From NCBI GenBank assembly GCA_963768175.1, contig CAVYGQ010000001.1, positions 510,305 to 574,304 of the forward strand: DNA of 64,000 nt. The letters are read 5' to 3'. A program made the translations under genes and the position numbers. Of this stretch, positions 2,997-60,513 are shown one piece after another. This stretch comes from Candidatus Doudnabacteria bacterium (GTDB taxonomy: Bacteria > Patescibacteriota > Doudnabacteria > UBA920). Below the pieces are notes generated by a model that worked only from the letters and a program-made list of their open reading frames with translations, ran no database searches and was not told where the DNA came from. How positions within the stretch are numbered: the stretch's first letter is position 1; each line of letters begins with the position of its first letter.

Positions 2997-4489
2997 TTCG
3001 TCCACCACTCTTTGGCGTCCCTCTTTATCCATTCATCCGCCTCCTTGGGGCCGTTGGACCTGGGCTTGTAAATATGGTTCGGCAGATTCCTGAACTCTTT
3101 GGCCTCGGTAATGCTGTCCACAAACTTCCAGCTGGCCTCTATTTCGTCGCTGCGGATGAACAAACGCTGGTCGCCTTCCAAAAAATCCAACAGCAAACGT
3201 TCATAAGCTCCCGGTATTTCCCCCTTAAAGGCGCGCCCGTAGCCGAATTCAAAATCGCCGCGGTGGAGGTTTACGCCAAAACCGGGAATTTTGTTGTTAA
3301 TCTGCAAATGCACCGATTCGTCCGGCTGGATTTGGAAAGTTAAGACGTTCGGCGCGTAGCCTTCAAACAAACTGCGGACCGGCTCGCGGAAATGGATGGA
3401 AATTTGGGTCAGCTTTTTGGAAAGTTTCTTGCCGGTTTTTAAATAAAAAGGCACGCCGGCCCAGCGCGGCAAATTGACGTAAGTTTTCAGCGCAAAGAAC
3501 GTTTCCGTCCGGCTTTGCTCCCCCGACTCGCGTGCCCAGGGCGAAACCGCGACTTCTTTTGCGTAACCCTGATACTGCCCCTTAACCAACCGCGCAGCCA
3601 ATTTTTCCGGCGTAAACGGCTCTAAAGCCTGCAGGACTTTTATTTTTTCGTCGCGGATGAATTCCGCCGTCAGTTTATACGGCTCGTCCATGGCGATTAA
3701 CGCCAACATCTGCAAAATATGGTTTTGCAAAAAATCTTTTATGGCGCCGGTGGAATCGTAATAGCCAATCCGCCCGGCCGCGCCGTCCTTTTCCAAAACC
3801 GAAATTTCCACATGGTCTATAAAGCGGTTATTCCATAGCGGCTCAAACAAGCTGTTGGCAAACCTTACCACCATCAGGTTCTGCACGGTTTCCTTGCCCA
3901 CATAGTGGTCAATGCGGTAAATTTGGTCCTCGGTAAAATATTTCAGCAGCAGCTGGTTTAAATTTTGCGCGGATTTTAAATTAAACCCGAACGGCTTTTC
4001 CAGCAACACCCTGACTTTGCGCTCATGCTCGGCGCAGGAAACCAGCAGACCCGAAGCTTTTAAAATTTTAGTGATAGGAGCAAACTGCTGGGGGTTGGTG
4101 GCAAAATAAAACAGGCGATTAAAGCAGACGTGTTTGGGCTGGTCGTGGTCGGCCAAAATTTTGGCCAAATCGGTAAACTGCTCCGCATGGTCAAAATCCC
4201 CGGAATAATATATCAAATGTTTTAAAAATGCGGATTTCTTGGTCGCGCTCAATTTTTTTACGACGCGGGATTTCTTGATTATAAAATTCAAATACGCTTT
4301 TGCCGTAAACGGGCGCCTGGCCACGCAAACCAACTTAAAAGTTTTTGGCAGCAATTTGTGCTCGTCCATATGCAAAAGAGCCGGGATTAAATAATCCGCG
4401 CTTAAATCCCCGGTCGCGCCAAAAATAGTTAAAATGGTCGGCGGCAAGTTTTGGCTAATACTATGGGAATGTATGTCTTCTTTGGCCAT
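2993..4489 (-). CDS. zwf: Glucose-6-phosphate 1-dehydrogenase
   Basis: Diagnostic RIDHYVGKE active-site motif, N-terminal NADP-binding GATGDL, length 498 aa. Confidence 0.9.
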   Translation of the reverse strand: MAKEDIHSHSISQNLPPTILTIFGATGDLSADYLIPALLHMDEHKLLPKTFKLVCVARRPFTAKAYLNFIIKKSRVVKKLSATKKSAFLKHLIYYSGDFDHAEQFTDLAKILADHDQPKHVCFNRLFYFATNPQQFAPITKILKASGLLVSCAEHERKVRVLLEKPFGFNLKSAQNLNQLLLKYFTEDQIYRIDHYVGKETVQNLMVVRFANSLFEPLWNNRFIDHVEISVLEKDGAAGRIGYYDSTGAIKDFLQNHILQMLALIAMDEPYKLTAEFIRDEKIKVLQALEPFTPEKLAARLVKGQYQGYAKEVAVSPWARESGEQSRTETFFALKTYVNLPRWAGVPFYLKTGKKLSKKLTQISIHFREPVRSLFEGYAPNVLTFQIQPDESVHLQINNKIPGFGVNLHRGDFEFGYGRAFKGEIPGAYERLLLDFLEGDQRLFIRSDEIEASWKFVDSITEAKEFRNLPNHIYKPRSNGPKEADEWIKRDAKEWWTK

Positions 4490-5628: not shown

Positions 5629-6154
5629 AAGGTTTGATACTGATATACGGATTAATACTGACCCGCCTGCCTACGCCTTCTGCCAAATTTTGATGGATAT
5701 TGATAATAAAATCAATAACCAACATCCATCGGACAGGCACAGACGGCATTGGCGGGCAGGTGATACAGATAATACGGATGTGTGATATCAGTATTATCAG
5801 TATAATCCGCATGCATTAGTATATCGGTATCTTATAAATATTATAGCAAATTTTTGCGAAAAAAGCATTTTGAATAAAGTACCGGTAGTTAGCCCATTCA
5901 TGGGCTGTTATGTTTTCTTATGAAGACAGCTGATAAATCAGCTAACTACACTACATGGCTGCCAACATTGACAAAACGCCAATATTTATGCTATATTTGT
6001 AGCGCAAACCCGGAAGAAGCGGGGTTTTTATTTGAAAATATAGAACACGGATTTACGGATAAAGAACGGATCTACCGATATCTACCGATTCTAACAAACA
6101 ATATCCGTAGACATCCGTTGATCCGAATCCAATCAGTAGATCCGTGTTAATTTT

Positions 6155-8134
6155 ATGAAACGCGACAACATCCGCAACATCGCCATAATCGCCCACGTTG
6201 ACCACGGCAAGACTACTTTGGTTGACGCCATGCTCAAGCAAACCCATACGGTTAAGGACAACCCCGAGACCAAAGATTTAATTATGGACAGCATGGATTT
6301 GGAGCGCGAGCGCGGCATTACCATTCGGGCGAAAAACGCTTCGCTTATTTATAACGGCATTCACCCCGTTAAATCCGCCGAAGGCGGGGCTGCTTCGCAG
6401 CCATTTAACGGGGTGAAAATTAACCTCATAGATACGCCGGGCCACACGGATTTTGGCGGCGAAGTGGAGCGGACTTTGCGTATGGCCGACGGCGTACTTT
6501 TACTGGTGGACGCCAAAGAAGGCCCTATGCCGCAAACCAAATTCGTGCTTAAAAAAGCTTTGGAGCTCGGTCTTAAAGCCATTGTCGTAATTAATAAAGT
6601 AGATAAACCAGACGCACAGGTGGAAGAGTCCACCAATAAAACTTTTGATTTATTTGTAAAACTGGATGCCAAAGATCACCAACTGGATTTCCAAATTATT
6701 TACGCGGCGGGCAGTTTGGGTTTGGCCGATACCGATTTAGAAAGTTTAAGATCCAAAATCAAAAGCCATGCCGCGCCGGATGTTGCTCCCCTATTTGAGT
6801 CCATAATTAAATTTATTCCAGCACCCGACGTAAAACCTGAAGATCCTTTTGCCATGCTGGTTTTGGCTTTGGTTTACGACAACTACAAAGGCAAAATGGG
6901 CATTGGTAAAATTATTTCCGGCTCCATTAAAAAAGCGCAAACCATTTGCAGAATCAAGACCGACGGCCAGCGCGACAACGGCAAAATTACTTCCTTACAA
7001 ATGTATGAAGGTTTGGCGCCCGTGAACGTGGAAGAAGCCGTAGCCGGCGACATTGTGGCCATTGGCGGCTTTGACGACATTTCCATTGGCGAAACTTTAA
7101 CCGATCCCCTAAATCCCATCCATTTGGAGCCGGTAGAAATAGAGCCGCCCACAATTAAAATGACCTTTGGCGTGAACACTTCCCCGTTTGCCGGCAAAGA
7201 GGGCAAGTTTGTGACCTCCCGCAATTTGCGGCAGCGGCTTTACAAAGAGCTGGAAATAAACGTGGCGCTTAAAGTTGCCCCGTCCGAAGAAGGAGCCGAA
7301 AGCTTTTTGGTTAGCGGACGCGGCGAACTGCATTTGGGAGTTTTGATTGAAACGATGAGGAGAGAAGGTTTTGAACTGCAGGTTTCCCAGCCGCAGGTTA
7401 TTTACCATTATGCTCCAAAATCTCACCCCCACCTAGCCTCCCCCCTCAAGGGGGAGGAAAACAAAGTTTCCCTCCCTGGAGTGGAGGGGTCAGGGGAAGG
7501 TGATATGATTAAGCTTGAGCCCTACGAAATTGTCAGCATAGATGTGCCCAGCGAATATCAGGGCGCGGTAATAGAAAATTTGGGCAAGCGCGGCGGGGAA
7601 ATGCAAGGCCTGGACACCAGCTCAAGCGGCGAAATGCACGCGGAATATCTTATCCCCACCAGAGGGCTTATTGGCCTAAAAAGCTTATTGCTTACCCAAA
7701 CGCGCGGCACCGTAATAATGAACAATTTATTTGACAGCTATAAACCCGTACACGAAATAGATTCCCACGCCAATGACCACGGCAGTTTAATTTCCAGCGA
7801 AACCGGCGTATCCAACGCTTACGGCCTTAACAACGCGCAGGAGCGCGGCATCCTGTTTATCGGCCCAGCCGTGGATGTTTACGAAGGCATGGTAGTAGGA
7901 AAAAACTCTGTAGATACGGACTTGGAATTAAACGTCTGTAAAACTAAAAAACTCACCAACATCCGCTCCTCCGGCACGGACGAAGCCATAATCTTAACCC
8001 CTCCCCGCCCCATTGAGCTGGACTTTGCGTTGGAATACATCGGCCCTGACGAGTTGGTGGAAGTTACCCCCAAGAGCATTCGCATTCGCAAAAAAATCTT
8101 GAACGCCACCGAACGCAAACGCGCCGCCCGCTAA
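6155..8134 (+). CDS. typA: Translational GTPase TypA/BipA (carries two in-frame insertions)
   Basis: [13 protein letters not shown]1 motif, [20 protein letters not shown], and the BipA C-terminal domain. Length 659 aa versus about 600-610 for canonical BipA. Confidence 0.9.
6359..6418 (+). repeat. Palindromic element inserted in-frame in typA. It is a perfect 14-bp terminal inverted repeat ATTCACCCCGTTAAAT / ATTTAACGGGGTGAA enclosing two nested hairpins (CCGCCgaaGGCGG and GGCTGCttcGCAGCC).
   Basis: Seen in sequence. Encodes [18 protein letters not shown] inserted between YNG and [11 protein letters not shown] of the otherwise canonical G domain. AACGG is duplicated at both junctions. Confidence 0.65.
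7421..7504 (+). repeat. Second GC-rich hairpin-bearing in-frame insertion in typA. Hairpins are CCTCCCCC-TCAA-GGGGGAGG and CCCTCC-ctggagt-GGAGGG. Outer ends TCACCCCC...GGTGA resemble the first element.
   Basis: Encodes about 34 extra residues ([34 protein letters not shown]) between the conserved QVIY and IKLEPYE segments. Confidence 0.45.
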
Positions 8135-8136
8135 CC

Positions 8137-8200
8137 TACCTGTCATTCCGGCCTCCGAGCCGGAATCCATATCACGCAAAACCCCGCCAACCGGCGGGGT
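8137..8200. terminator. Bidirectional intrinsic terminator after typA. Main hairpin AAAACCCCGCC-AACC-GGCGGGGTTTT, preceded by a second hairpin ATTCCGGC-ctccga-GCCGGAAT.
   Basis: Perfect stems with an A-tract and a T-tract, so it works on both strands (typA on plus, the 8213 gene on minus). Confidence 0.6.
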
Positions 8201-8212
8201 TTTAAATTAAAG

Positions 8213-8965
8213 TCAAACTTCCAAATCAAAGGAAATATTTTTTTCTACCCACAGAAGTCCTTTTTTAGTTAAATGCGCGGAATCGTTCCGAAAATCTAAT
8301 CTACCATCAACATTTAATTCGTTTAGCTGCCGTCGCAAAACTCCCTTGTTAGTATATCCTGTCCAATCAAAAATATCGTCCAAAGAAATATTTTCCGGAT
8401 ATTTCTGGTAACAAAAAACAAGGACTTTTTCTTTTACATTTAACTTTGAATTTAGACATTTTAGCCGGCCACCAATTTCTTCAATTATTGGTACTTTTCG
8501 TTCAATAATCTTTTTAATTTCAGCCTGAGCTTCACAGGGAGTCATTTGCGTTTCTAAACGAACCAGCTCGGCAACAATCCAATTGGCTGCATTAAGCACA
8601 AATATAGAATCCACCTCATTTACGTCTACCGCACCTGGGTGTGCTACATTCCGCTTATTGCGAAAATCCAAAATAAGCTCAGCCAACCCGAGGATGTGAA
8701 AGCGTAAAGATTCATCGAGGCTTACATTTTTCCGCACAGCGGAAGCTATAACAAGTCGCTTAATTTGAGTCCCAATTGCAGTATACTTACTCGAATGTTT
8801 ATATTCTAAAATCCGAAAAACAATTTCTGCAAATCGTCCGCCGTCTAACTGACTTGGTTCCCAACGCCCAAGAAAATACTGCTGGTGCAGTTTTTGAAAT
8901 TCAGTTTGAAGATCATTGACTAGACTGCCCGGCAAATTACTTAGGTGTTGGGTTAGTGGGTTCAT
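8213..8965 (-). CDS. Hypothetical protein with a putative HEPN-like Rx4-6H motif (FRNKRNVAHPG); possible Abi or toxin-like nuclease
   Basis: 250-aa ORF in a low-GC islet. The R-x6-H motif is embedded in a predicted helical region. The assignment rests on the motif only. Confidence 0.45.
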   Translation of the reverse strand: MNPLTQHLSNLPGSLVNDLQTEFQKLHQQYFLGRWEPSQLDGGRFAEIVFRILEYKHSSKYTAIGTQIKRLVIASAVRKNVSLDESLRFHILGLAELILDFRNKRNVAHPGAVDVNEVDSIFVLNAANWIVAELVRLETQMTPCEAQAEIKKIIERKVPIIEEIGGRLKCLNSKLNVKEKVLVFCYQKYPENISLDDIFDWTGYTNKGVLRRQLNELNVDGRLDFRNDSAHLTKKGLLWVEKNISFDLEV

Positions 8966-10634: not shown

Positions 10635-11615
10635 TTAAGTCAACAATTGCGAAACTATCAGGTCCAAAAGTAACCTTGGCGGAGCGCTGGAACTTTTTAG
10701 CTCTTCGTCCAAAGCTTCCAGCTTATTTAGGAAATCCAAGATTTTTTTGGGCGGAAAGCGCGCGGCGATTTTTTTCATTACGAACAGCCGGCCCGGTTTC
10801 CAGCCGGTGATTTCCAAAATTTGGTTTTCCGATTTTTTTGCCGCCATAAAATCCTGCACCGCCGCGACATTCCTGAATTGCTCGGAAAGCAAAGCGTTTA
10901 GCTGGATTATTCCAATTTTCTCGTCACTGCCAGTCTGTTCTTTTAAAAAGCGATGCAAAAGCCCCATGGCTTTTTGCTTTTGGTTGTCGGCAATCGCGTT
11001 GGTTAAATCAAACACGTCCACTTCCCCGTTTTCCGAAACCAAATCCTCCACTTCTTTAGTTCCTATTTCCGCCTTTCCGGCAAAAGCCAAAAGCTTTTTT
11101 ATTTCGCTGTCCGCCTGCCACAAACTAAAAACTTCTTCTGCCGATGTTACCTTGCCTGCTACTTTAATTTCTTTTCCGTTGTCGCGCCCCAAACGGACAG
11201 CCAGCAAATCTACGGCTTCCTTGCTCATTGCGCCGCCATAAAACTTAACCCGCTTGGCTATCCATTCGTTTAACTCCCTGCCGTGCGGCAAAACAAATTC
11301 TTTTATAGTGATTTTTTTATTCGATAGCAATTCTTTGTTTTCCTTTTTCCTTTTGTCTAAAGCTTTAAGGGAAATTACTATATTATTGGCTGTTGCGATC
11401 ATTTTTTCAATTTCCGGCTTCGTAAATTCTGGCATAACGTTTTGCAGCATAAAAACCTTCGGCTTGGAAAACAAATCCGTTTCTAAAAACTGGCCGTTAT
11501 TGGGCAATTGATCACCTTCCGAAAACATTACCAAATCGGCTCCTTTGTCTTTAACTAAAGAGTCTATAAAATCTTTTTTGGAAAAATCATCCGGACCTAA
11601 AAGAAGTATAAGCAT
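10635..11615 (-). CDS. holA: DNA polymerase III delta subunit (HolA-like)
   Basis: Family-level call only: 326 aa starting MLILLLGPDDF, position adjacent to tRNA genes. Confidence 0.55.
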   Translation of the reverse strand: MLILLLGPDDFSKKDFIDSLVKDKGADLVMFSEGDQLPNNGQFLETDLFSKPKVFMLQNVMPEFTKPEIEKMIATANNIVISLKALDKRKKENKELLSNKKITIKEFVLPHGRELNEWIAKRVKFYGGAMSKEAVDLLAVRLGRDNGKEIKVAGKVTSAEEVFSLWQADSEIKKLLAFAGKAEIGTKEVEDLVSENGEVDVFDLTNAIADNQKQKAMGLLHRFLKEQTGSDEKIGIIQLNALLSEQFRNVAAVQDFMAAKKSENQILEITGWKPGRLFVMKKIAARFPPKKILDFLNKLEALDEELKSSSAPPRLLLDLIVSQLLT

Positions 11616-13477: not shown

Positions 13478-14035
13478 TTACTGCTGTAAAAGTTTATCCT
13501 GAATTTTAAAAGTAAAATGGTAATTCACGTTCACCGGGTTTACCACATTTTCCAAAGGATAATCTATGCCGTAAAAATCATCGGTGTCCCGTAAAATATT
13601 ATTGTAAAGCGCAATTACCAAATCACGAGTGGGGCTAAGTCCAGTAATATTGATTGTTTTTTGGATTGGGTTAATGGTAAAAGTGCTGATTTTAACACCG
13701 GGCGGCGGCAAAGGCGCAAAAGCCTTAATTACCTTAGACCAATGGGGCGAGCTATTGGCTAAATTCAGGTAATCTGAAACCAAATTATTAACCGCTGCGA
13801 TTTTGGCTTTAATTTCGGTATTTTGCTGTTTGTTTACCTGGCTCTGCAGCTGCGCGACCTGTTGCTTAATGGCATTATCCTCATACTGCAAATAAAATTT
13901 TGTGGCAAACTGGGCTAAAAAAACCAAAATAAAACTGACCAAAGAAAGATTGACTACAACCCAGAGGCTATGTAGTATAATTTCGTAGCGCAGTTCCTGC
14001 TGTCTGGTTTTGGGTAAAAGATTGATGGTCTTCAT
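13478..14035 (-). CDS. pilN: Type IV pilus assembly protein PilN-like
   Basis: INLLP motif at the N-terminus, single TM helix, coiled-coil. Likely start at the internal Met (MKTINLLPK). Confidence 0.6.
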   Translation of the reverse strand: MKTINLLPKTRQQELRYEIILHSLWVVVNLSLVSFILVFLAQFATKFYLQYEDNAIKQQVAQLQSQVNKQQNTEIKAKIAAVNNLVSDYLNLANSSPHWSKVIKAFAPLPPPGVKISTFTINPIQKTINITGLSPTRDLVIALYNNILRDTDDFYGIDYPLENVVNPVNVNYHFTFKIQDKLLQQ

Positions 14036-14039
14036 CGCT

Positions 14040-15146
14040 TTAATTGGCCTCGTAGGCGGCGCCTCTAGCGGCAAGGCCTATTGCCGTGGCAAAACTCAAA
14101 CTTTCTAAAACGCCTAAGTGTTCGCTATTGGTTATTTTTAAATTTTGCAAAGGGTTAGCTAATTCCACGTTGGACACTCCCACTTCCGAAAGCTGGGTCG
14201 CCAGAAATTCCGGCAAATTCTTAAGCTTACCGCTGCCGCCGGCAATAATAACCCTTTGGACTTGGTTTAAAGAATGCTCGCCATGAAATTTTAGGATATT
14301 TTTTATCTCCGCGGCCAAATTATATAATACCGGTAAAAGCTCGGTCTTGATATTCGGGTATTCCGTGGTGTTAGCAATACCGACTTTTTTCTTAATTTCT
14401 TCGGCTTTGCTGCTGGAAACGCCGAGGGCCCTGGCAATACTTTCGGTAAAAGTATTGCCGGCAATAGGGATGGTAGAAGTAAACTGTAAATTGCCCTGTT
14501 CTACCATTATTAAACTGCTGCGGAAACTGCCCAAGTCTACCAAAAGCGAAGTTTCCAGGCTAGCGGGTTTTACAGCCGCCCTTAAACAACTCTGCGATTC
14601 CACTTCCATCGCCACGGTTTTTAGCCCGGCTTTATCCAAGACCTCCAAATACTTGTCAACGAATTCCTTAGGAGAAGCAATCATTAAAACATTCATTTTG
14701 CCCACTTCGGCTAGGCCTGCTTCAACCCGGCCTGCCTCGCCTGGCTGTCCGACGATTTTTTGCCAGTCCAAATAAACCTGATCTATGGGCAAAGGAATAA
14801 AACTCTCGGCTTCAAACGGCACGGCGTTATTGGCTTCACTATCGCTCATTTGTGGAATTTGAATAACACGCACAAAAGATTTGGATTCCGGAAGGCTGGC
14901 AATCACATGGTTAGTATCAAACTTGCCGTATTGCGGCTTATCCAAGGACTGTTTTAACAAAAAGCTAAAAGTTTTAACATCCGTTATCACATCATTAATA
15001 ATTAAGCCTTTTGGCAAAAAAGCCTCATGATAACTTTTTAACCTAAACTGTTTGGCCTGTTGTTCCAGCCTCACAATTTTTAAGGAATTGGCGCTTACAT
15101 CGAGGCCAAAACTGGGCAAAGTTTTAGAAAGGAAGTTAAACTTCAT
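14040..15146 (-). CDS. pilM: Type IV pilus assembly ATPase-like protein PilM (actin/FtsA fold)
   Basis: GLDVSANSLKIV N-terminal motif and actin-like fold signature. Likely start MKFNFLSK (the ORF track extends to 15188). Confidence 0.75.
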   Translation of the reverse strand: MKFNFLSKTLPSFGLDVSANSLKIVRLEQQAKQFRLKSYHEAFLPKGLIINDVITDVKTFSFLLKQSLDKPQYGKFDTNHVIASLPESKSFVRVIQIPQMSDSEANNAVPFEAESFIPLPIDQVYLDWQKIVGQPGEAGRVEAGLAEVGKMNVLMIASPKEFVDKYLEVLDKAGLKTVAMEVESQSCLRAAVKPASLETSLLVDLGSFRSSLIMVEQGNLQFTSTIPIAGNTFTESIARALGVSSSKAEEIKKKVGIANTTEYPNIKTELLPVLYNLAAEIKNILKFHGEHSLNQVQRVIIAGGSGKLKNLPEFLATQLSEVGVSNVELANPLQNLKITNSEHLGVLESLSFATAIGLAARGAAYEAN

Positions 15147-15150
15147 AAAT

Positions 15151-16359
15151 TTAGCTAGCATTCTGATAAATACTGTATATAGGGGCAATTAGGGCCAAAG
15201 CCAGCAGACCGACAACCGCTCCGATAGTCAAAATAAGCAGCGGCTCAATTACGGAAGCCAAATTTTTTAAGGTGTCATCAACCTCGGCTTCATAGTGAAT
15301 GGCCAGCTGTTCCAAAATTTCCTGCGTACTGCCGCTCTCCTCACCCACGGCTACCATTTGCTGCACCAATACGGGAAAAAGTTTTTCGCTTTTGCTTAAG
15401 GACTCGGCCAGAGGCTTGCCTATCCTGACGTCTTCCGCGGCCTGCACCAGCAGTTCCTTATAAAGCACGTTATCCAACGATTCCGCCACTACTTCTAATC
15501 CCTGAACTATCGGAACTCCGCTTTTAAGCATGGAACTTAAAATTCTGGCAAACCGCGCCAAATTTATTTTTTTTACGATTCCCTTTACCACAAAAAGATT
15601 CAGGCCAACAATACTGGAAGTCCGCTTGCCGGCCGCGGTGCGAAAAAAAGCGACGGACACAACAGCAATACCTATCATTCCCCCAATTGCCAAAACGGCA
15701 TGGTGGCTCATAAGATTGGATATGGCGATGACAATGCGGGTGGTAAGCGGGAGGGCAACGCCCTGCTCGGTAAAAATGGACATTAAGCTCGGCAGGACAA
15801 AAATAGACATAAGCACCCCAATGACAATCATAGCTATCACAATAACCGAAGGATACATCATGGCTCCCTTGACCTTGCTCTTTAAATCGGCTTCCCGCTC
15901 AAGCTGGATGCTTAAATATTCCAGGCTCCTGTCGAGGTTGCCGGAAAGTTCGCCGATTTTTATCATGCTCGTGACAATATTCGGAAACACGCTGGGATAT
16001 TTTGACAAAGCCTCGGCCAGGCTTTTCCCCTGCTGAACCTGATTATAAACATCACTAAGAATGTCCTTAAATTTTTTGTTGTGCGTTTGCTTGACCAAAA
16101 TTTGCAAACAACGGCTTATGGATATCCCGGCTTTGAGCATAACGCCCAAATTTTGCACAAAGTTAATTTTTTCGGACAGTGAAACAAAGGAAAAATTTTT
16201 TAAAAAGGAAAAAGTGGTTTTTGCCCCCTGCTCGCGGATTTCCGTAGGCAAAAGGCCCTGCTCTTTAAGCAGGTGCCCGGCCGTAGCCAAATTCGCCGCC
16301 TCAATTGAGGAGCTTTCTTTGCGGCCGTCTTTGGTTATGGCTGTGTAGGTGAATTCCAT
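15151..16359 (-). CDS. pilC: Type IV pilus inner-membrane platform protein PilC (GspF family)
   Basis: Two T2SS-F repeats and three TM segments; 402 aa. Confidence 0.8.
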   Translation of the reverse strand: MEFTYTAITKDGRKESSSIEAANLATAGHLLKEQGLLPTEIREQGAKTTFSFLKNFSFVSLSEKINFVQNLGVMLKAGISISRCLQILVKQTHNKKFKDILSDVYNQVQQGKSLAEALSKYPSVFPNIVTSMIKIGELSGNLDRSLEYLSIQLEREADLKSKVKGAMMYPSVIVIAMIVIGVLMSIFVLPSLMSIFTEQGVALPLTTRIVIAISNLMSHHAVLAIGGMIGIAVVSVAFFRTAAGKRTSSIVGLNLFVVKGIVKKINLARFARILSSMLKSGVPIVQGLEVVAESLDNVLYKELLVQAAEDVRIGKPLAESLSKSEKLFPVLVQQMVAVGEESGSTQEILEQLAIHYEAEVDDTLKNLASVIEPLLILTIGAVVGLLALALIAPIYSIYQNAS

Positions 16360-16374
16360 AATAATTTAAATTCG

Positions 16375-16500
16375 AAGCACTAAGTCCGAAGTTCGAAACA
16401 AATTCAAATATCTAAATAATAAATTCTAAACTCGAGATATCCCTGTTTAAATATTAAATATTTGTATTTAGATATTGTTTCGGATTTCGATATTCGAATT
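16375..16500. repeat. Long imperfect palindrome (about 45-bp arms) in the pilB-pilC intergenic region. The core inverted repeat is AAATATCTAAATA / TATTTAGATATTT, flanked by TTCGAA and TTTCGAT direct repeats.
   Basis: Seen in sequence; AT-rich, with no ORF. Confidence 0.4.
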
Positions 16501-16507
16501 TCGATTT

Positions 16508-18262
16508 TTATTCCTTTGATACTCTCACCAGTTCCTCAATAGTCGTAATACCCCGTGCCGCCTTAATAAAACCGTCTTCCCACATTAAAATCATACCTTC
16601 TTTTTCCCCCTGTTCCTGAATTTCCTGGGAGCTTTTATGGGCCATGATCATTTGGGCTATAGCCGGAGTCACCTCCAATATTTCGTGAATGCCCAACCGG
16701 CCCCGGTAGCCGGTTTTGGAACACTTATCACAGCCCTCGCCTCTGTAAAACTTTACTTCTTTTAAGCTTTTGCATTTGGCCGGAGCCACTCCCGCGCGCG
16801 TTAAGACCGGCAAAAGTTTGTCCAAATGGAATTGCTTGGACAAAGCTTCTATCGCGGCATCATCCAAAACAAACGGTTTTTGGCAGTCTTTGCAAATTAC
16901 CCTGACTAACCTCTGGGCCAAAACGGCGTTTATGGTAGAAGCGATTAAGTATGGCTCCACGCCAATGTCTAAAAGCCTGGGCAGGGCCGAGGCCGCGTCG
17001 TTGGTATGCAAAGTGGAAAACACAATGTGCCCGGTCATGGCGGCGTGGACCGCCTCTTCGGCGGTTTCCTTGTCGCGGATTTCGCCGATCATAATAATAT
17101 TCGGGTCTTGCCGAAGCAACGCCCGCAGACCCACATCAAAAGTCAAACCGATTTTAGGATTAACCTGCATCTGGTTGGCGCCGACAATCCGGTATTCAAC
17201 GGGGTCTTCAATGGTGGAAATATTGACGCTTTTTGTATTAAGCATGGACAGCACAGTATACAAAGTCGTGGATTTTCCGCTGCCGGTCGGGCCGGTAACC
17301 AAAAGCATGCCGTGGGGTCTTTTTACGTTGCGGTTAATGACTTCATACGAATCTTTTTCAAAACCCAGCTCTTCCAAAGTCATGGCTTTGGCCGATTCGT
17401 CCAAAAGCCGGATAACGACTTTTTCACCGTCAAAAATCGGAATGGTGGATACGCGCAAAGAAAACTTATAGCCGTCTTTTTCTATTTTAAACCTTCCGTC
17501 CTGCGGCAGGCGATGCTCATCTATTTTTAGGTTGGAGATAACTTTAATGCGCGCAACAATTGCCGCCTGGATGACTTTAGGCAATGTCATAACATCGTGC
17601 AGGACTCCGTCTATGCGGTAACGCACGGTCACGGCGTTTTCCTGGGGCTCTATGTGGATGTCGCTGGCCTTTTCCAATACCGCGTATTCCAGCAGCGTGT
17701 CCACCACGCGGATAACCGGAATTTCCTCGGCCATTTTTTTTAAATTATCATCCTTCGCGCTTTCCCCTTCCGCTTGAGCAGCCAAGGGTTTGGATGACGG
17801 CGAAAACAAATGTTTTATTTCCTTTTCCAGGGAGGAATGGTATTTGGAAAGGCCAAAATCCAAACTGGCGCGGCCGATTAAAAAAGTCTTGATTTTCAGG
17901 CCGGTCTTTTTTTGGATAAACTCTTTGGTCTGGATATCTTCCGGATCCTGCATGGCTAAAGACAGCTCGTCCTTAGTTTTGGCAAAGCTAATAACCTGAT
18001 GGCGGTGGGCAATAGGCTCCGGCACCAAATTGAGCACGTCCTGGGGAATTTGCAGGGTGGTTAAATCTATAATCGGAGCACTAAGCAGCTGGCTTTTAAG
18101 CGCCAAAAGTTGCTGTTCAGTTACCGCTTTCTTTTCAATTAAAAAATCTTCCCAAGTTGTTGGGATTTTTACCTGAGACAAATCCTTTTCCAAAACTTCC
18201 AGCTTGTCCTCGGTTAAAATTTTATTTTGTTTTAAAGCCGTGTTTAACTCTTGTTTGTCCAT
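16508..18262 (-). CDS. pilB: Type IV pilus assembly ATPase PilB (GspE family)
   Basis: Walker A GPTGSGKST, GspE N-terminal domain, and the tetracysteine motif CKDC...CDKC. Confidence 0.85.
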   Translation of the reverse strand: MDKQELNTALKQNKILTEDKLEVLEKDLSQVKIPTTWEDFLIEKKAVTEQQLLALKSQLLSAPIIDLTTLQIPQDVLNLVPEPIAHRHQVISFAKTKDELSLAMQDPEDIQTKEFIQKKTGLKIKTFLIGRASLDFGLSKYHSSLEKEIKHLFSPSSKPLAAQAEGESAKDDNLKKMAEEIPVIRVVDTLLEYAVLEKASDIHIEPQENAVTVRYRIDGVLHDVMTLPKVIQAAIVARIKVISNLKIDEHRLPQDGRFKIEKDGYKFSLRVSTIPIFDGEKVVIRLLDESAKAMTLEELGFEKDSYEVINRNVKRPHGMLLVTGPTGSGKSTTLYTVLSMLNTKSVNISTIEDPVEYRIVGANQMQVNPKIGLTFDVGLRALLRQDPNIIMIGEIRDKETAEEAVHAAMTGHIVFSTLHTNDAASALPRLLDIGVEPYLIASTINAVLAQRLVRVICKDCQKPFVLDDAAIEALSKQFHLDKLLPVLTRAGVAPAKCKSLKEVKFYRGEGCDKCSKTGYRGRLGIHEILEVTPAIAQMIMAHKSSQEIQEQGEKEGMILMWEDGFIKAARGITTIEELVRVSKE

Positions 18263-18265
18263 TTG

Positions 18266-18365
18266 CCCGCCTAAATTTTGCCATTTTTGGCACGTTTAAT
18301 TGTTCATCCGCCGTTTGGTTTACTAATACATCCCTATAAGTATTGTATAGCAAAATTTAGGCGGG
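18266..18365 (-). promoter_or_regulatory. 16-bp perfect inverted repeat (CCCGCCTAAATTTTGC ... GCAAAATTTAGGCGGG) starting 4 nt upstream of the pilB start codon; candidate 5'-UTR hairpin or operator
   Basis: Seen in sequence; the arms are separated by about 68 bp. Confidence 0.4.
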
Positions 18366-57859: not shown

Positions 57860-60513
57860 TAGTTTAACAATCAAGCTTACGGCTGCGGTCTTTGCTTTGT
57901 CCGTATTTGGGGCGGCAGGCACGGCTTTAGCTGCCACGCCGATTTTACAGGTAACCCAAAGCGGCAACAGCTATGTGCTTACGGTCAATAATGCCGATGC
58001 CAATGCCACGGTGAGCCTATACGAAAAACAGAGCGCTTCGCTATGGTCGGTAATCAGCAGTTGGGGCCAAACAAGCAGCAGCGGTAGCTTTAGTGCCACG
58101 CAGCCTTTGGCGTTTGACGGCAGCGGTAACGCCCTGCAATTGTATGTAATGGTCGACGGCCTGCAATCCTCTATAGTCAATGTTTATTCCAGCGGCACCT
58201 GTACCACCAACTGCGGCACCGGCACGCTTAGCCTAAGCCAGATGCTGGTAAATTTAAGCACCAACCAGACCAATGTTGTTACGGCCTACCCGACCAGCGG
58301 CAACATTTACGTTTCCGGCAACAGCAACGCCAATGCCGTAAATTACTCCTTAAACGGCAACCAAATCACCGTAACGGGTGTGGCCACGGGCAGCAGCATT
58401 ATTACCGTCTGCTCAAATGGCGGCAGCCAGTGCGGCACCATAACGGTTTCGGTTAACGGCGCGACTACCACCGGCATCACTTTTGACAACAGCAGCCCCA
58501 CCATTACGCTCGGCCAAAGCCTGAACGTCAATATTTACAGCAGCACGGGCAGCAGCAACGGCTTTTACGTTTCCAGCAACAGCAATGCCAACTCCGTAAA
58601 CGTCACGCAAAGCGGCAGCACGCTGACGATTTACGGCCAGCAGGTCGGCACGGCCAGTATTTCCGTCTGCCAGACCGGCACGTCGTTTTGCGGTACGCTG
58701 TCAGTGACTGTGGGCAGCAACGGCGGCCAAGCCGGCATGACCATAAGCACCAACACGCTCACTTTGCGCCCGGCCAGAGCGGCACGGCCACCGTGTCCAA
58801 TACCTACGGCTCCCTCTACATTTTCAATAACTCCAACAGCAGCGTAATAAGCGCCGGCATCAGCGGCCAGACCGTGACTGTTTACGCGATAGTCGCAGGC
58901 TCAAGCACGTTGAGCATCTGCCAAAACGGCTATAGCGGCTGCGTCAGCCTGTACGTGCAGGTCAGCGGCAGCAACAACTCCATTAGCGGCAGTTTGTCGT
59001 TCGGCACGGCCAATCCGGTTTTAACTATCGGCCAAAGCCAGAGCGATACCATTTATCCCCCAAACGGCAACTCAAACGGCTTTTACATTTCCAGTAACAG
59101 CAACAGTAACGCGGTCAGTACCACAATCAGCGGTTCAACTTTAACGATGTTCGGCCAGAACACCGGTACGGCAACTATTAAAGTTTGCAGCAACGATAAT
59201 TCTTACTGCGGCAATGTTTACGCCACGGTCAACGGCTATAGCGGCGGCGTGACATTCAGCCAGAGCACGGTTAATTTGAATCTCAACCAAAACTCCAGCA
59301 TTACCGTATCCGGCGGCACCGGAAGCTATGTGCTAACCAGCAATACCGGCCCGAACGTGGTTGCGGCCTCATTGACCGGCAGCACGCTGTATTTGAACGC
59401 TTTAAATAACGGCAGCGCCACCATTACGGTTTGCCAAAGCGGCAACACTTCGGCCTGCGGCCAGGTTATTGTAACTGTCGGCGGTTCAAGCAACGGCAAC
59501 AACATTATTACCTTCAGCAACAGCAGCCCGGCCGTGGCAGTCGGCCAAAGCCAGACCGTAACCGTCTACACCACCAACGGCTGGACCGGAAATTATTCCG
59601 TAACAAGCAACAGCAATTCAAACGCGGCAACCGTCAGCGTAACAGGCACTTCAATTAACATTACCGGCATACAAAACGGCAGTACTATTATCACCGTTTG
59701 CCAAACCGGCAGTTCGGTTTGCGGCACCCTGACCGCCACAATCGGTACCGGCGCTACCTCCAGCCCGGTTACTTTTGCCACCACCGGCCTGCCAGCCGGA
59801 ACTGTGGGTTTAAGCTACGGCTACCAGCTTCAGGCCCAGGGCGGCGCGGGAAGTTACACTTATTTCCTACCTTCGGGAAGTTTGCCGGCCGGGATTACGC
59901 TTTCCACTGGCGGGTTAATCCAAGGCATCCCCACTGCCACCGGTACCACCAGTTTTACCCTACAGGTTACCGACAGCGGCGGCACCAGCCAAAACTTGAA
60001 TTTCAGCATTACCGTAAACCCCGCTTCTCCGTCTGCCACAACTCCACAAGCTGCAGGCAATGGCACTTATACAAACGGCCAACTGATTAACGAAAACGGC
60101 ACCATATCAATCGTATACAAAAACACCAAAACCCCCTTTGCCAATGCCGCGGCATTTTTGGGTCTGGGTTTTAAGTTCAGCGATGTGTGGCGGTCAGCAA
60201 TTCCGGCTTGCCGCTTTCCAATAAAATAGTAGTGACGGCCGACGGCGGCCACCCGCGCGGCAGCTGGCTGTTAGTCGGTTCTACGGTTTACTTCCTAACC
60301 CCGAACGGAATGATTCCGATACCAAGCTGGGCAATATTCCTCAGTAACGGCGGCCAAGCAGGTTTTCTGGTCAAGGCCAACAGTTACGACCTTAATTTCC
60401 CCAAACTTCCACTAATGGTAGACAATGATGCAAGGTTGAAAATAATGCTAAAAAGTGACCCCACCTCGACAGAGAGGACACCCGAAACCGCGGATCGAAA
60501 TCCCACCCTTTAA
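57798..60513 (+). CDS. Giant secreted Cys-containing tandem-repeat surface protein. It has a signal peptide, about 8 tandem repeats of roughly 85 aa each with two Cys, a putative Ig (He_PIG-like) domain, and a C-terminal F-x-S-A-x-A-F-x-G-L-G-F module. It is interrupted by at least 2 frameshifts (near 58.75 kb and 60.19 kb).
   Basis: ORFs 57735-58847, 58688-60229 and 60187-60513 are consecutive pieces of one repetitive protein. The signal peptide is MKNLKTKIISNGVN...AVFALSVFGAAGTALA. Confidence 0.55.

Follow-up and report, generated by a model that had tools for sequence, protein, structure and literature searches.

The typA (bipA) gene of a Candidatus Doudnabacteria bacterium carries within its reading frame a GC-rich segment that folds into perfect hairpins, which raises the question of what kind of element can occupy a conserved gene in this manner. 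The gene lies in a 64,000-nt stretch of DNA (positions 510,305 to 574,304 of contig CAVYGQ010000001.1, assembly GCA_963768175.1), the whole of which was analysed and is hereafter called the window. The segment is designated insert B, and the codon position that it occupies is designated site B. The preliminary description of this DNA had regarded insert B and a second insert in the same gene, insert A, as products of one active family of palindromic elements. The best explanation of insert B, to which we assign a probability of about 0.7, is that it is a drifted, tails-outward inverted pair of BoxC/PIT/TM_ECO-type units. The pair lies in the reading frame of TypA at a hairpin tip that would tolerate it, and it would be translated as a disordered loop and represent an old allele at a site of fast turnover. 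The kind of element is already known; its presence inside a conserved gene is noteworthy.

The product of the typA open reading frame (ORF) matched E. coli BipA, a protein of solved structure, with E = 6.6e-171, and the alignment was broken at two places, at query residues of about 67-84 and 419-449. The nearest database proteins were TypA proteins of Candidatus Doudnabacteria, which are usually 611-613 amino acids long. All of the BipA Pfam domains were present in the window TypA and the reading frame was kept across insert B, where typA's own frame was the only one of the six that was open. The GC content was 0.61 at positions 7421-7504, 0.49 in the rest of typA, and 0.45 in the whole window. 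In the window TypA, 34 residues separate ...QVIYH from KLEPYE in place of a 5-residue turn, which amounts to a net gain of 87 nt (29 residues); the 34 extra residues claimed previously therefore stand as the length of the variable segment, and the gain is smaller. That insert B is an insertion relative to its orthologues was borne out by relatives 94% identical to the window TypA in the alignment columns that they share and by E. coli BipA, which have the 5-residue turn only. In E. coli BipA this turn is EIDGR, with no insert. In the empty relative L001, CAC-GAAAAAGGCGGCGTC-AAAATGGAG encodes His, the turn EKGGV, and then KMEPYE (L and P numbers are labels for the compared loci and TypA proteins; P0001 is the window protein and P0004 is that of L001). 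The segment was not conserved at the protein level in distant BipA homologues.

In E. coli BipA, domains III and V comprise residues 303-385 and 386-482, respectively (PMC4543647). In the alignment, insert B was mapped between residues 390 and 393 of the E. coli protein, where domain III joins domain V, and its position corresponds to the tip of the β-hairpin leading into domain V, at the codon after His418 in Doudnabacteria TypA. In terms of the domain order of EF-G, this junction is topologically the place where EF-G carries domain IV. An AlphaFold2 model of the window TypA was built on 70 homologues, and residues 424-449 had pLDDT values below 50 and no secondary structure, between strands 418-421 and 451-454. 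The peptide is of low complexity and rich in G, P, S, and E. These features fit a tolerated, exposed, and disordered loop, and the earlier suggestion that in-frame insertion is tolerated agrees with a position at which a loop is permitted. A search of 5.8 billion proteins with a 40-residue query covering the peptide gave no candidate, and the source protein itself was not recovered either. The gene had also been called essential; E. coli can do without bipA under standard conditions, and essentiality is therefore an assumption for the Doudnabacteria host.

A fold prediction and a scan by the triplex rules divided insert B into two units flanked by outer arms (Table 1). Unit 1, read on the minus strand, consists of a pyrimidine arm, an exactly complementary purine arm, and a third block. 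Its stems are 8 nt long, its two loops measure 5 and 3 nt, and it has no mismatch; on the minus strand, the left outer arm provides the G/T-rich third strand GGTGGGGG together with the CTA loop. When the third strand was placed antiparallel on the purine arm, the G.G-C and T.A-T triplet rules were obeyed at all 8 positions. The tail of unit 2 fits the tail of the inserts of relatives, G(T/C)C(A/G)GGG(G/T)(G/A)AGG(T/G)T. Judged by the ITxF criteria for intrastrand triplexes (stems of 6-15 nt and loops of 1-6 nt), the purine-motif (class II) architecture was perfect in unit 1 and had one mismatch in unit 2. The ends of the insert, TCACC (7423-7427) and GGTGA (7499-7503), are inverted and extend into an imperfect, weak outer stem. 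The exact hairpins reported previously in 7421-7504 were confirmed as perfect 8-bp and 6-bp stems, the loop of hairpin 1 being 5 nt rather than 4 nt. The folding energy of insert B was -44 to -49 kcal/mol, which was only modestly better than that of shuffled sequences (z = -2.2 and -2.7), because C-runs and G-runs pair in any order. On the other hand, the hairpin-plus-third-strand motif with stems of at least 7 nt occurred in none of 200 Markov-shuffled windows. Rfam searches of the window at gathering thresholds and of positions 5800-8400 at E <= 10 returned nothing relevant to insert B. A G-quadruplex reading was set aside: the repeat consensus has four G3 tracts, but the window copy lacks four regular tracts. 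An intein, an intron, and a CRISPR were also set aside, given an element of 87 nt with no matching RNA family that encodes no protein.

Table 1. Positions of typA, of the parts of insert B, and of the second gene that carries in-frame units in relatives
Feature	Location	Strand	Description	Basis
typA/bipA	window 6155..8134	+	ORF, 659 aa; host gene of insert B	
Variable segment	window 7409..7510	+	34 codons; replaces the ancestral 5-codon turn E(E/K)(D/N)G(V/Q)	DNA and protein alignments
Left outer arm	window 7423..7436	+	TCACCCCCACCTAG; C-rich	fold and triplex-rule scan
Unit 1	window 7426..7457	-	CCTCCCCC-TTGAG-GGGGGAGG-CTA-GGTGGGGG	triplex-rule scan
Hairpin 1	window 7437..7457	+	CCTCCCCC / CTCAA / GGGGGAGG; perfect 8-bp stem, 5-nt loop	
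Spacer	window 7458..7469	+	AAAACAAAGTTT; A/T-rich, between units 1 and 2	
Hairpin 2	window 7470..7488	+	CCCTCC / CTGGAGT / GGAGGG; perfect 6-bp stem	
Unit 2	window 7470..7499	+	hairpin 2, then GTCA-GGGGAAG; degenerate, 6-nt stems, 1 third-strand mismatch	
Right outer arm	window 7489..7503	+	GTCAGGGGAAGGTGA; pairs imperfectly with the left outer arm	
Second conserved gene	L004 3644-4291	-	unit in frame	
Second conserved gene	L002 4721-5428	-	unit in frame	
Second conserved gene	L008 2977-3606		empty	
Second conserved gene	L021 5829-6431		empty	

This architecture is that of a known repeat whose name and literature are missing from the preliminary description. BoxC, the PIT element, and the intrastrand triplex motif TM_ECO are treated as one and the same (Holder et al. 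2015, NAR 43:10126, PMC4666352), and BoxC/PIT had been described earlier (Bergler 1992; Hoyne & Maher 2000, as cited in PMC4666352). The strict TM_ECO pattern is 5'-CCCTCNCCC N3-6 GGGNGAGGG N3 GGGNGAGGG. Its single strand formed a stable triplex in vitro by circular dichroism and nuclear magnetic resonance, while the duplex did not. There are 23 copies in E. coli K-12, all of them intergenic, and 3,610 copies in 262 proteobacterial genomes. The motif is significantly associated with local sequence or genomic instability, has no link to transposons, phages, or plasmids, and has no known RAYT association (all PMC4666352). According to earlier work as cited in that paper, PIT elements have no promoter or terminator activity in E. 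coli.

Insert B shares with this family the succession of a C-rich arm, a loop of 3-6 nt, a complementary G-rich arm, a loop of about 3 nt, and a second G-rich block, which in both cases obeys the G.G and T/A.A triplet rules. Like insert B, the family is tied to a locally unstable, fast-changing locus and is also found as inverted 'palindromic' pairs. In E. coli K-12, an inverted pair of perfect TM_ECO units occupies the hrpB-mrcB spacer (NC_000913.3, 164535-164729; L206); the pair has no RefSeq annotation, and no Rfam family covered the motif in the motif-bearing E. coli, Pseudomonas, and Xanthomonas loci. In contrast to the E. coli pair, whose tails point inward, the tails of the window pair point outward. 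The window arms are 8 nt and 6 nt long, with the T/A position shifted from the strict consensus. Moreover, insert B lies in frame inside a conserved gene, whereas all copies in E. coli K-12 are intergenic, and its host belongs to a candidate phylum (Patescibacteria), whereas the published count covers Proteobacteria only. The assignment of insert B to BoxC/PIT/TM_ECO rests on its architecture and on its same-site relatives: because the general architecture is present and the relatives at the same site match the strict pattern, we regard insert B as a probable drifted member.

Site B was readable in 65 of the 80 metagenome typA loci that were fetched (L004-L083), and 52 of the 65 had the 5-residue turn E(E/K)(D/N)G(V/Q/K). 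Some insert was present at this codon in 21 of 120 close TypA homologues, and the inserts were of several unrelated kinds: TM-type units or pairs, a GTAG...CTAC REP-like pair, ATCCGCC...GGCGGAT hairpins, and an AT-richer cassette encoding T(R/Q)K(Y/F)AELDAE... The insert of L004, CCCTCTCCC-TCT-GGGAGAGGG-TCA-GGGTGAGGG, is a perfect match to the strict TM_ECO pattern. L005 and L048 carry inverted pairs in the layout of the window, with an outer stem and two inner hairpins, and share its border codons (YAPK... and ...(D/N)M(I/V)-KLEPYE). The unit common to the same-site inserts is a C/T-rich hairpin followed by the G-rich tail given above, and the same-type inserts of relatives end with AACC(T/C)CTCCC...GGGGAG(A/G)GGTT. 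The nearest relative of the window, L002, has at site B (11201-11332) a GC hairpin pair bounded by GTAG...CTAC, which resembles a REP dimer, and a further hairpin; this insert of 44 codons is unrelated in sequence to insert B. The T(R/Q)K(Y/F)AELDAExRG.. cassette, which is built on the direct repeat ACGCGGAAATACGCGGAA, was found in scattered lineages at the codon position of insert B (L006 3482-3553, L019 2524-2598, and L208).

Related copies were also found outside site B. Several TM-type copies occurred within the loci of about 22 kb of close relatives, including an intergenic copy at 4319-4351 of L004, where other C/G hairpins lie at 3180-4420, and copies upstream of typA in L005 and L006; AACC...GGTT ends were frequent in the Doudnabacteria units. 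The CPR typA neighbourhoods, which amount to about 948 kb, contained 12 motif matches, all in Doudnabacteria close to the window, and 6 of the 12 were at site B. In a second conserved gene of 216-236 amino acids, which has no Pfam hit on record, a single site is occupied by an in-frame TM_ECO unit in L004 (SSPLPMGEGRVRVD) and, in the opposite orientation, in L002 (NPHPRPSPKGRGG), while the orthologues in L008 and L021 are empty (Table 1). The earlier idea of a GC-rich palindromic repeat family is thus supported by intergenic and in-frame copies in related genomes, although the 64 kb examined then contain no other copy.

When 185,579 species, each represented by one genome, were scanned with the pattern CCCTCYCC-N3-7-GGRGAGGG-N1-5-GGGDGAGG, at least 120 matches were obtained in many phyla. 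Among the matches listed were Proteobacteria, Bacteroidota, Chloroflexota, Planctomycetota, Cyanobacteria, Actinomycetota, and others, with genera and groups such as Pseudomonas, Xanthomonas, Enterobacter, Acinetobacter, Bifidobacterium, and Omnitrophica. Motif matches were present in 4,346 of 5,426 complete E. coli genomes. In addition, at least 120 matches to the TM_ECO pattern were found in viral contigs of IMG/VR (L211-L330), whereas Holder et al. reported no phage association (PMC4666352). About one quarter of the genome and viral matches listed lie well inside ORFs of at least 250 amino acids. All nine in-ORF copies checked by Pfam proved to lie in real genes, either within recognised domains or between them. 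The hosts were CN_hydrolase, LeuRS, IleRS, HsdR, an Eco57I-like methylase, an NHL/T9SS protein, a Mu transposase, and two MuF proteins, the Mu transposase and MuF copies being viral. Because the motif is in frame in Pfam-confirmed genes of other phyla, intergenic location may not be a true defining feature of TM_ECO. No description of in-frame copies of the motif was found in the literature that could be searched; in-frame REPs and RPEs, which are other families, are known (PMC3733652).

Two of the loci showed features of their own. In the LeuRS ORF of a Cytophagales genome (L135 5682-8000), the TM_ECO unit at amino acids 316-326 directly precedes a DUF559 (Vsr-like endonuclease) domain at amino acids 350-454 inside the synthetase. 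In Pseudomonas crudilactis (L091 421-755), three TM_ECO copies have near-identical 25-nt left flanks and a spacing of 151-152 nt, and look like a tandem array of a longer unit.

Insert B was compared with the two families known to reside within genes. As summarised in PMC3733652, the Rickettsia palindromic elements (RPEs) are a Rickettsia-specific family of short palindromic repeats that lie in frame in apparently functional genes, to which they add a peptide segment, and a gene may have more than one of them, just as typA has two inserts. Insert B agrees with them in that a palindromic repeat is in frame and the gene keeps its frame and domain set. In the same summary, RPE-4 and RPE-6 are CGTC-tagged and RPE-1 is longer, whereas insert B is a hairpin-plus-G-tail unit of many phyla; it is therefore set apart from the RPEs by phylum and unit architecture. 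Intragenic GTAG/CGTC-tagged REPs occur as single units and inverted dimers inside known genes and encode about 20-30 residues (Di Nocera et al. 2013, PMC3733652). The dimers resemble the GTAG...CTAC pair of the same-site allele of L002, but the window element has neither a GTAG nor a CGTC tag.

The history of site B was deduced from closely related TypA proteins. Filled and empty sequences were interleaved in a neighbour-joining tree. P0001, with the TM pair, was 95.7% identical outside site B to P0002, with a different insert, and 93.9% identical to the empty P0004; P0005, with a TM pair, and the empty P0011 were 95.6% identical; and P0037, with the T(R/Q)K(Y/F)AELDAE cassette, and the empty P0060 were 98.2% identical. 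Between L005 and L048 the identity was 83% in the insert and 77% in the gene, and between L006 and L019 it was 75% and 73%, respectively. The cassettes are about as divergent as the genes that carry them, and the cassette types are therefore old. Based on these comparisons and on the border codons shared with L005 and L048, the insert B of the window appears to be an old allele, common in diverged form to other Doudnabacteria lineages, rather than a fresh hit, and the site B codon appears to be a hotspot in these lineages, where different palindromic cassettes come and go.

The borders of the cassettes were examined for traces of insertion and exchange. Where filled and empty sisters differed in amino acids, the differences formed a cluster only within the replaced turn and at the residue after it. 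Co-converted flanks were rejected, since the dip in identity beside insert B came from the replaced turn codons themselves. The cassette borders matched the ancestral 15-nt turn at 3-10 of 15 positions, the 95th percentile of the background being 9, and the border of the window copy matched it at most at 6 of 15, within the background. The suspicion that the ancestral EKDGV turn was duplicated on both sides of the cassettes was accordingly dropped. Shuffling of an old polymorphism by homologous recombination, with empty alleles replacing filled ones, would explain the patchiness and the seemingly precise 'losses'.

We infer from the above a course of events in which the repeat is a DNA-level entity that, as single-stranded DNA, would fold into hairpins and, in unit 1, possibly also into a purine-motif triplex. 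It would persist because site B tolerates extra residues and because it can be read in the typA frame without a stop codon. The insert would be transcribed and translated, most likely into a 29-residue loop that is disordered, solvent-exposed, and without a required function.

Several points weigh against this explanation. With arms that read CCTCCCCC and CCCTCC instead of CCCTCNCCC, the window copy departs from the strict TM_ECO pattern, and scans of the 64-kb window found no second copy of the hairpin-plus-G-tail motif. The TM_ECO triplex was not detectable in vivo in E. coli, and purine-motif triplexes have been reported to be unable to form in RNA (PMC4666352). The overall quality of the AlphaFold2 model was mediocre (mean pLDDT 62.9). 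Nucleotide divergence was not elevated in the 60 nt to the left and right of site B (p = 0.15, 0.94, and 0.80), and no mechanism that could be demonstrated accounts for the way in which filled and empty alleles are mixed on the tree. Finally, the hairpins are kept across the window, L005, and L048 despite sequence change, which could indicate selection on structure rather than neutrality.

A different account of the turnover holds that the codon after His418 is a hotspot at which structured GC-rich cassettes, namely the BoxC/TM units, the GTAG-type pair, and the ACGCGG direct-repeat cassette, have repeatedly been gained, replaced, and precisely lost between lineages with no need of a transposase. 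Very short-tract gene conversion after DNA uptake would be a candidate process, and hairpin- or triplex-induced fork stalling with template switching would be an alternative one. We consider this account in its full extent unlikely. If it were true, BoxC/TM_ECO would be a pan-bacterial and phage-borne class of DNA that propagates itself and whose routine translation yields protein loops, and TypA would have a hypervariable loop where EF-G carries domain IV.

It is also improbable that insert B arose when an active MITE- or REPIN-like miniature transposon, of one family with insert A and dependent on a transposase encoded elsewhere, jumped recently into typA. The palindromic form and short inverted ends of insert B, the scattering of related units in relatives, in Doudnabacteria often with AACC...GGTT ends, the REP-pair-like GTAG...CTAC tags of the same-site insert of L002, and the existence of intragenic REPs (PMC3733652) would all be in keeping with such an origin. 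Only 5 bp of the ends of insert B are perfectly inverted, however, with an imperfect extension, against the terminal repeats of about 15-30 bp of MITEs, and GTAG, CTAC, CGTC, and GACG are all absent from 7409-7510. No target duplication rose above the background, no transposase was among the 25 of 70 Pfam families listed from a scan of 57 window ORFs, and in the study by Holder et al. the motif was not linked to transposons (PMC4666352). The cassettes and their genes have diverged to similar extents (83% and 77% identity in one pair, 75% and 73% in the other), which points to age and not to recent activity. The epithet 'active' is not supported for this genome, in which the 64 kb contain a single, degenerate copy.

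The proposed kinship of the two typA inserts did not hold either. Insert A, at about 6356-6415, comprises 54 nt or 18 codons inserted at the β2-β3 turn of the G domain relative to L001 and L002, which are both empty there. Its predicted fold is a perfect palindrome of three stems in the shape of a Y (z = -6.2), and it has no hairpin-plus-G-tail unit, in contrast to the inverted hairpin-plus-G-tail pair of insert B. In the distant lineage L210, whose TypA is 72% identical, paired, compensatory changes have preserved all three stems of a homologous insert A, the outer one as well as the two inner hairpins. The shared TCACCCC, which had been taken as an echo of the first element in the second, is not kept in the B-type inserts of relatives. 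Inserts A and B are therefore independent in kind and belong to different families. What they have in common is that both occupy β-hairpin turns, and residues 70-84 of insert A are likewise unstructured in the AlphaFold2 model, with pLDDT values below 50.

Other variable positions were noted in typA. A third GC-rich, hairpin-forming insert, DKCFDSAKGARGGGSNPAPLVGGGDASPIE, lies in frame after INKV in the G domain, at about amino acid 149 of P0079 (L210 5001-6983); it was seen in this one sequence only. At about amino acid 376 in domain III, 24 of 120 relatives have an insert of 8-10 residues, (L/M)(D/E)G.P(L/I)..., before SGGGE, which is conserved as protein and absent from the window TypA.

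A lineage-specific functional loop, which would extend BipA where EF-G carries domain IV and alter ribosome contacts, the DNA hairpins being incidental, was judged very unlikely. The site at the domain III/V junction is topologically suitable, the reading frame is kept open, and about one in six relatives has some insert there. Nevertheless, most relatives have none, the sequence matches a repeat that is usually non-coding, and the peptide is of low complexity (P, G, S, and E) in a low-confidence part of the model. In addition, P0001, P0002, and P0004, which are 94-96% identical outside site B, show three unrelated states.

Another proposal places the function in the typA mRNA, where a cluster of stem-loops would slow ribosomes for co-translational folding or protect the message. 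The three-stem layout is kept in the window, L005, and L048, with 3 of 29 pairs changed on both sides, the folding energy is -44 to -49 kcal/mol, and the location at a domain junction would suit such a role. With only three sequences, however, the covariation is weak and its term is unfavourable (+1.34), most relatives do without insert B, and there is no Rfam match. The lack of promoter or terminator activity of PIT in E. coli, as cited in PMC4666352, also argues against this proposal, and palindromes can be kept by templated repair at the DNA level as well. We regard it as highly improbable.

The chance of an assembly or chimera artefact is negligible: GC-rich palindromes can mislead assemblers and the exact window protein had no match in the contig index searched, but an identical 659-amino-acid protein is on record from NCBI and ENA on a contig of 949 kb, homologous inserts occur at the same codon in independent metagenomes (L005, L048, L004, and others), and the reading frame is preserved.

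Upstream of typA, at 6040-6150, there are three ACGGAT motifs and, after them, three ATCCGT motifs; AACACGGAT and ATCCGTGTT, at the outer ends, are exact inversions of each other, and the direct repeat ATCTACCGAT occurs twice. These repeats could be an operator array or a leader structure. Elsewhere in the window there are a 93-nt direct repeat (410-1033; 82% identical), type IV pilus-type T2SSE/T2SSF genes at 14000-18300, a placement derived from ORF lengths, a long one-strand cluster of sugar-nucleotide and glycosyltransferase genes at 18700-53000, and a repetitive coding stretch at 58200-59700.

BoxC/PIT/TM_ECO has been known since the 1990s, and the main study of it found it to be intergenic in E. 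coli K-12 and counted TM_ECO in Proteobacteria only. The present analysis adds its occurrence in a candidate-phylum (CPR) bacterium, in many phyla, and in viral contigs, and its repeated presence in frame inside conserved genes, such as typA and those of tRNA synthetases and restriction enzymes. At site B of typA, filled and empty alleles in proteins up to 98% identical provide material with which the ends of the element can be defined and its movement tested. For genome annotation, the element accounts for odd loops of the 'PSPxGEGxGE' type, a class that is common among predicted proteins.

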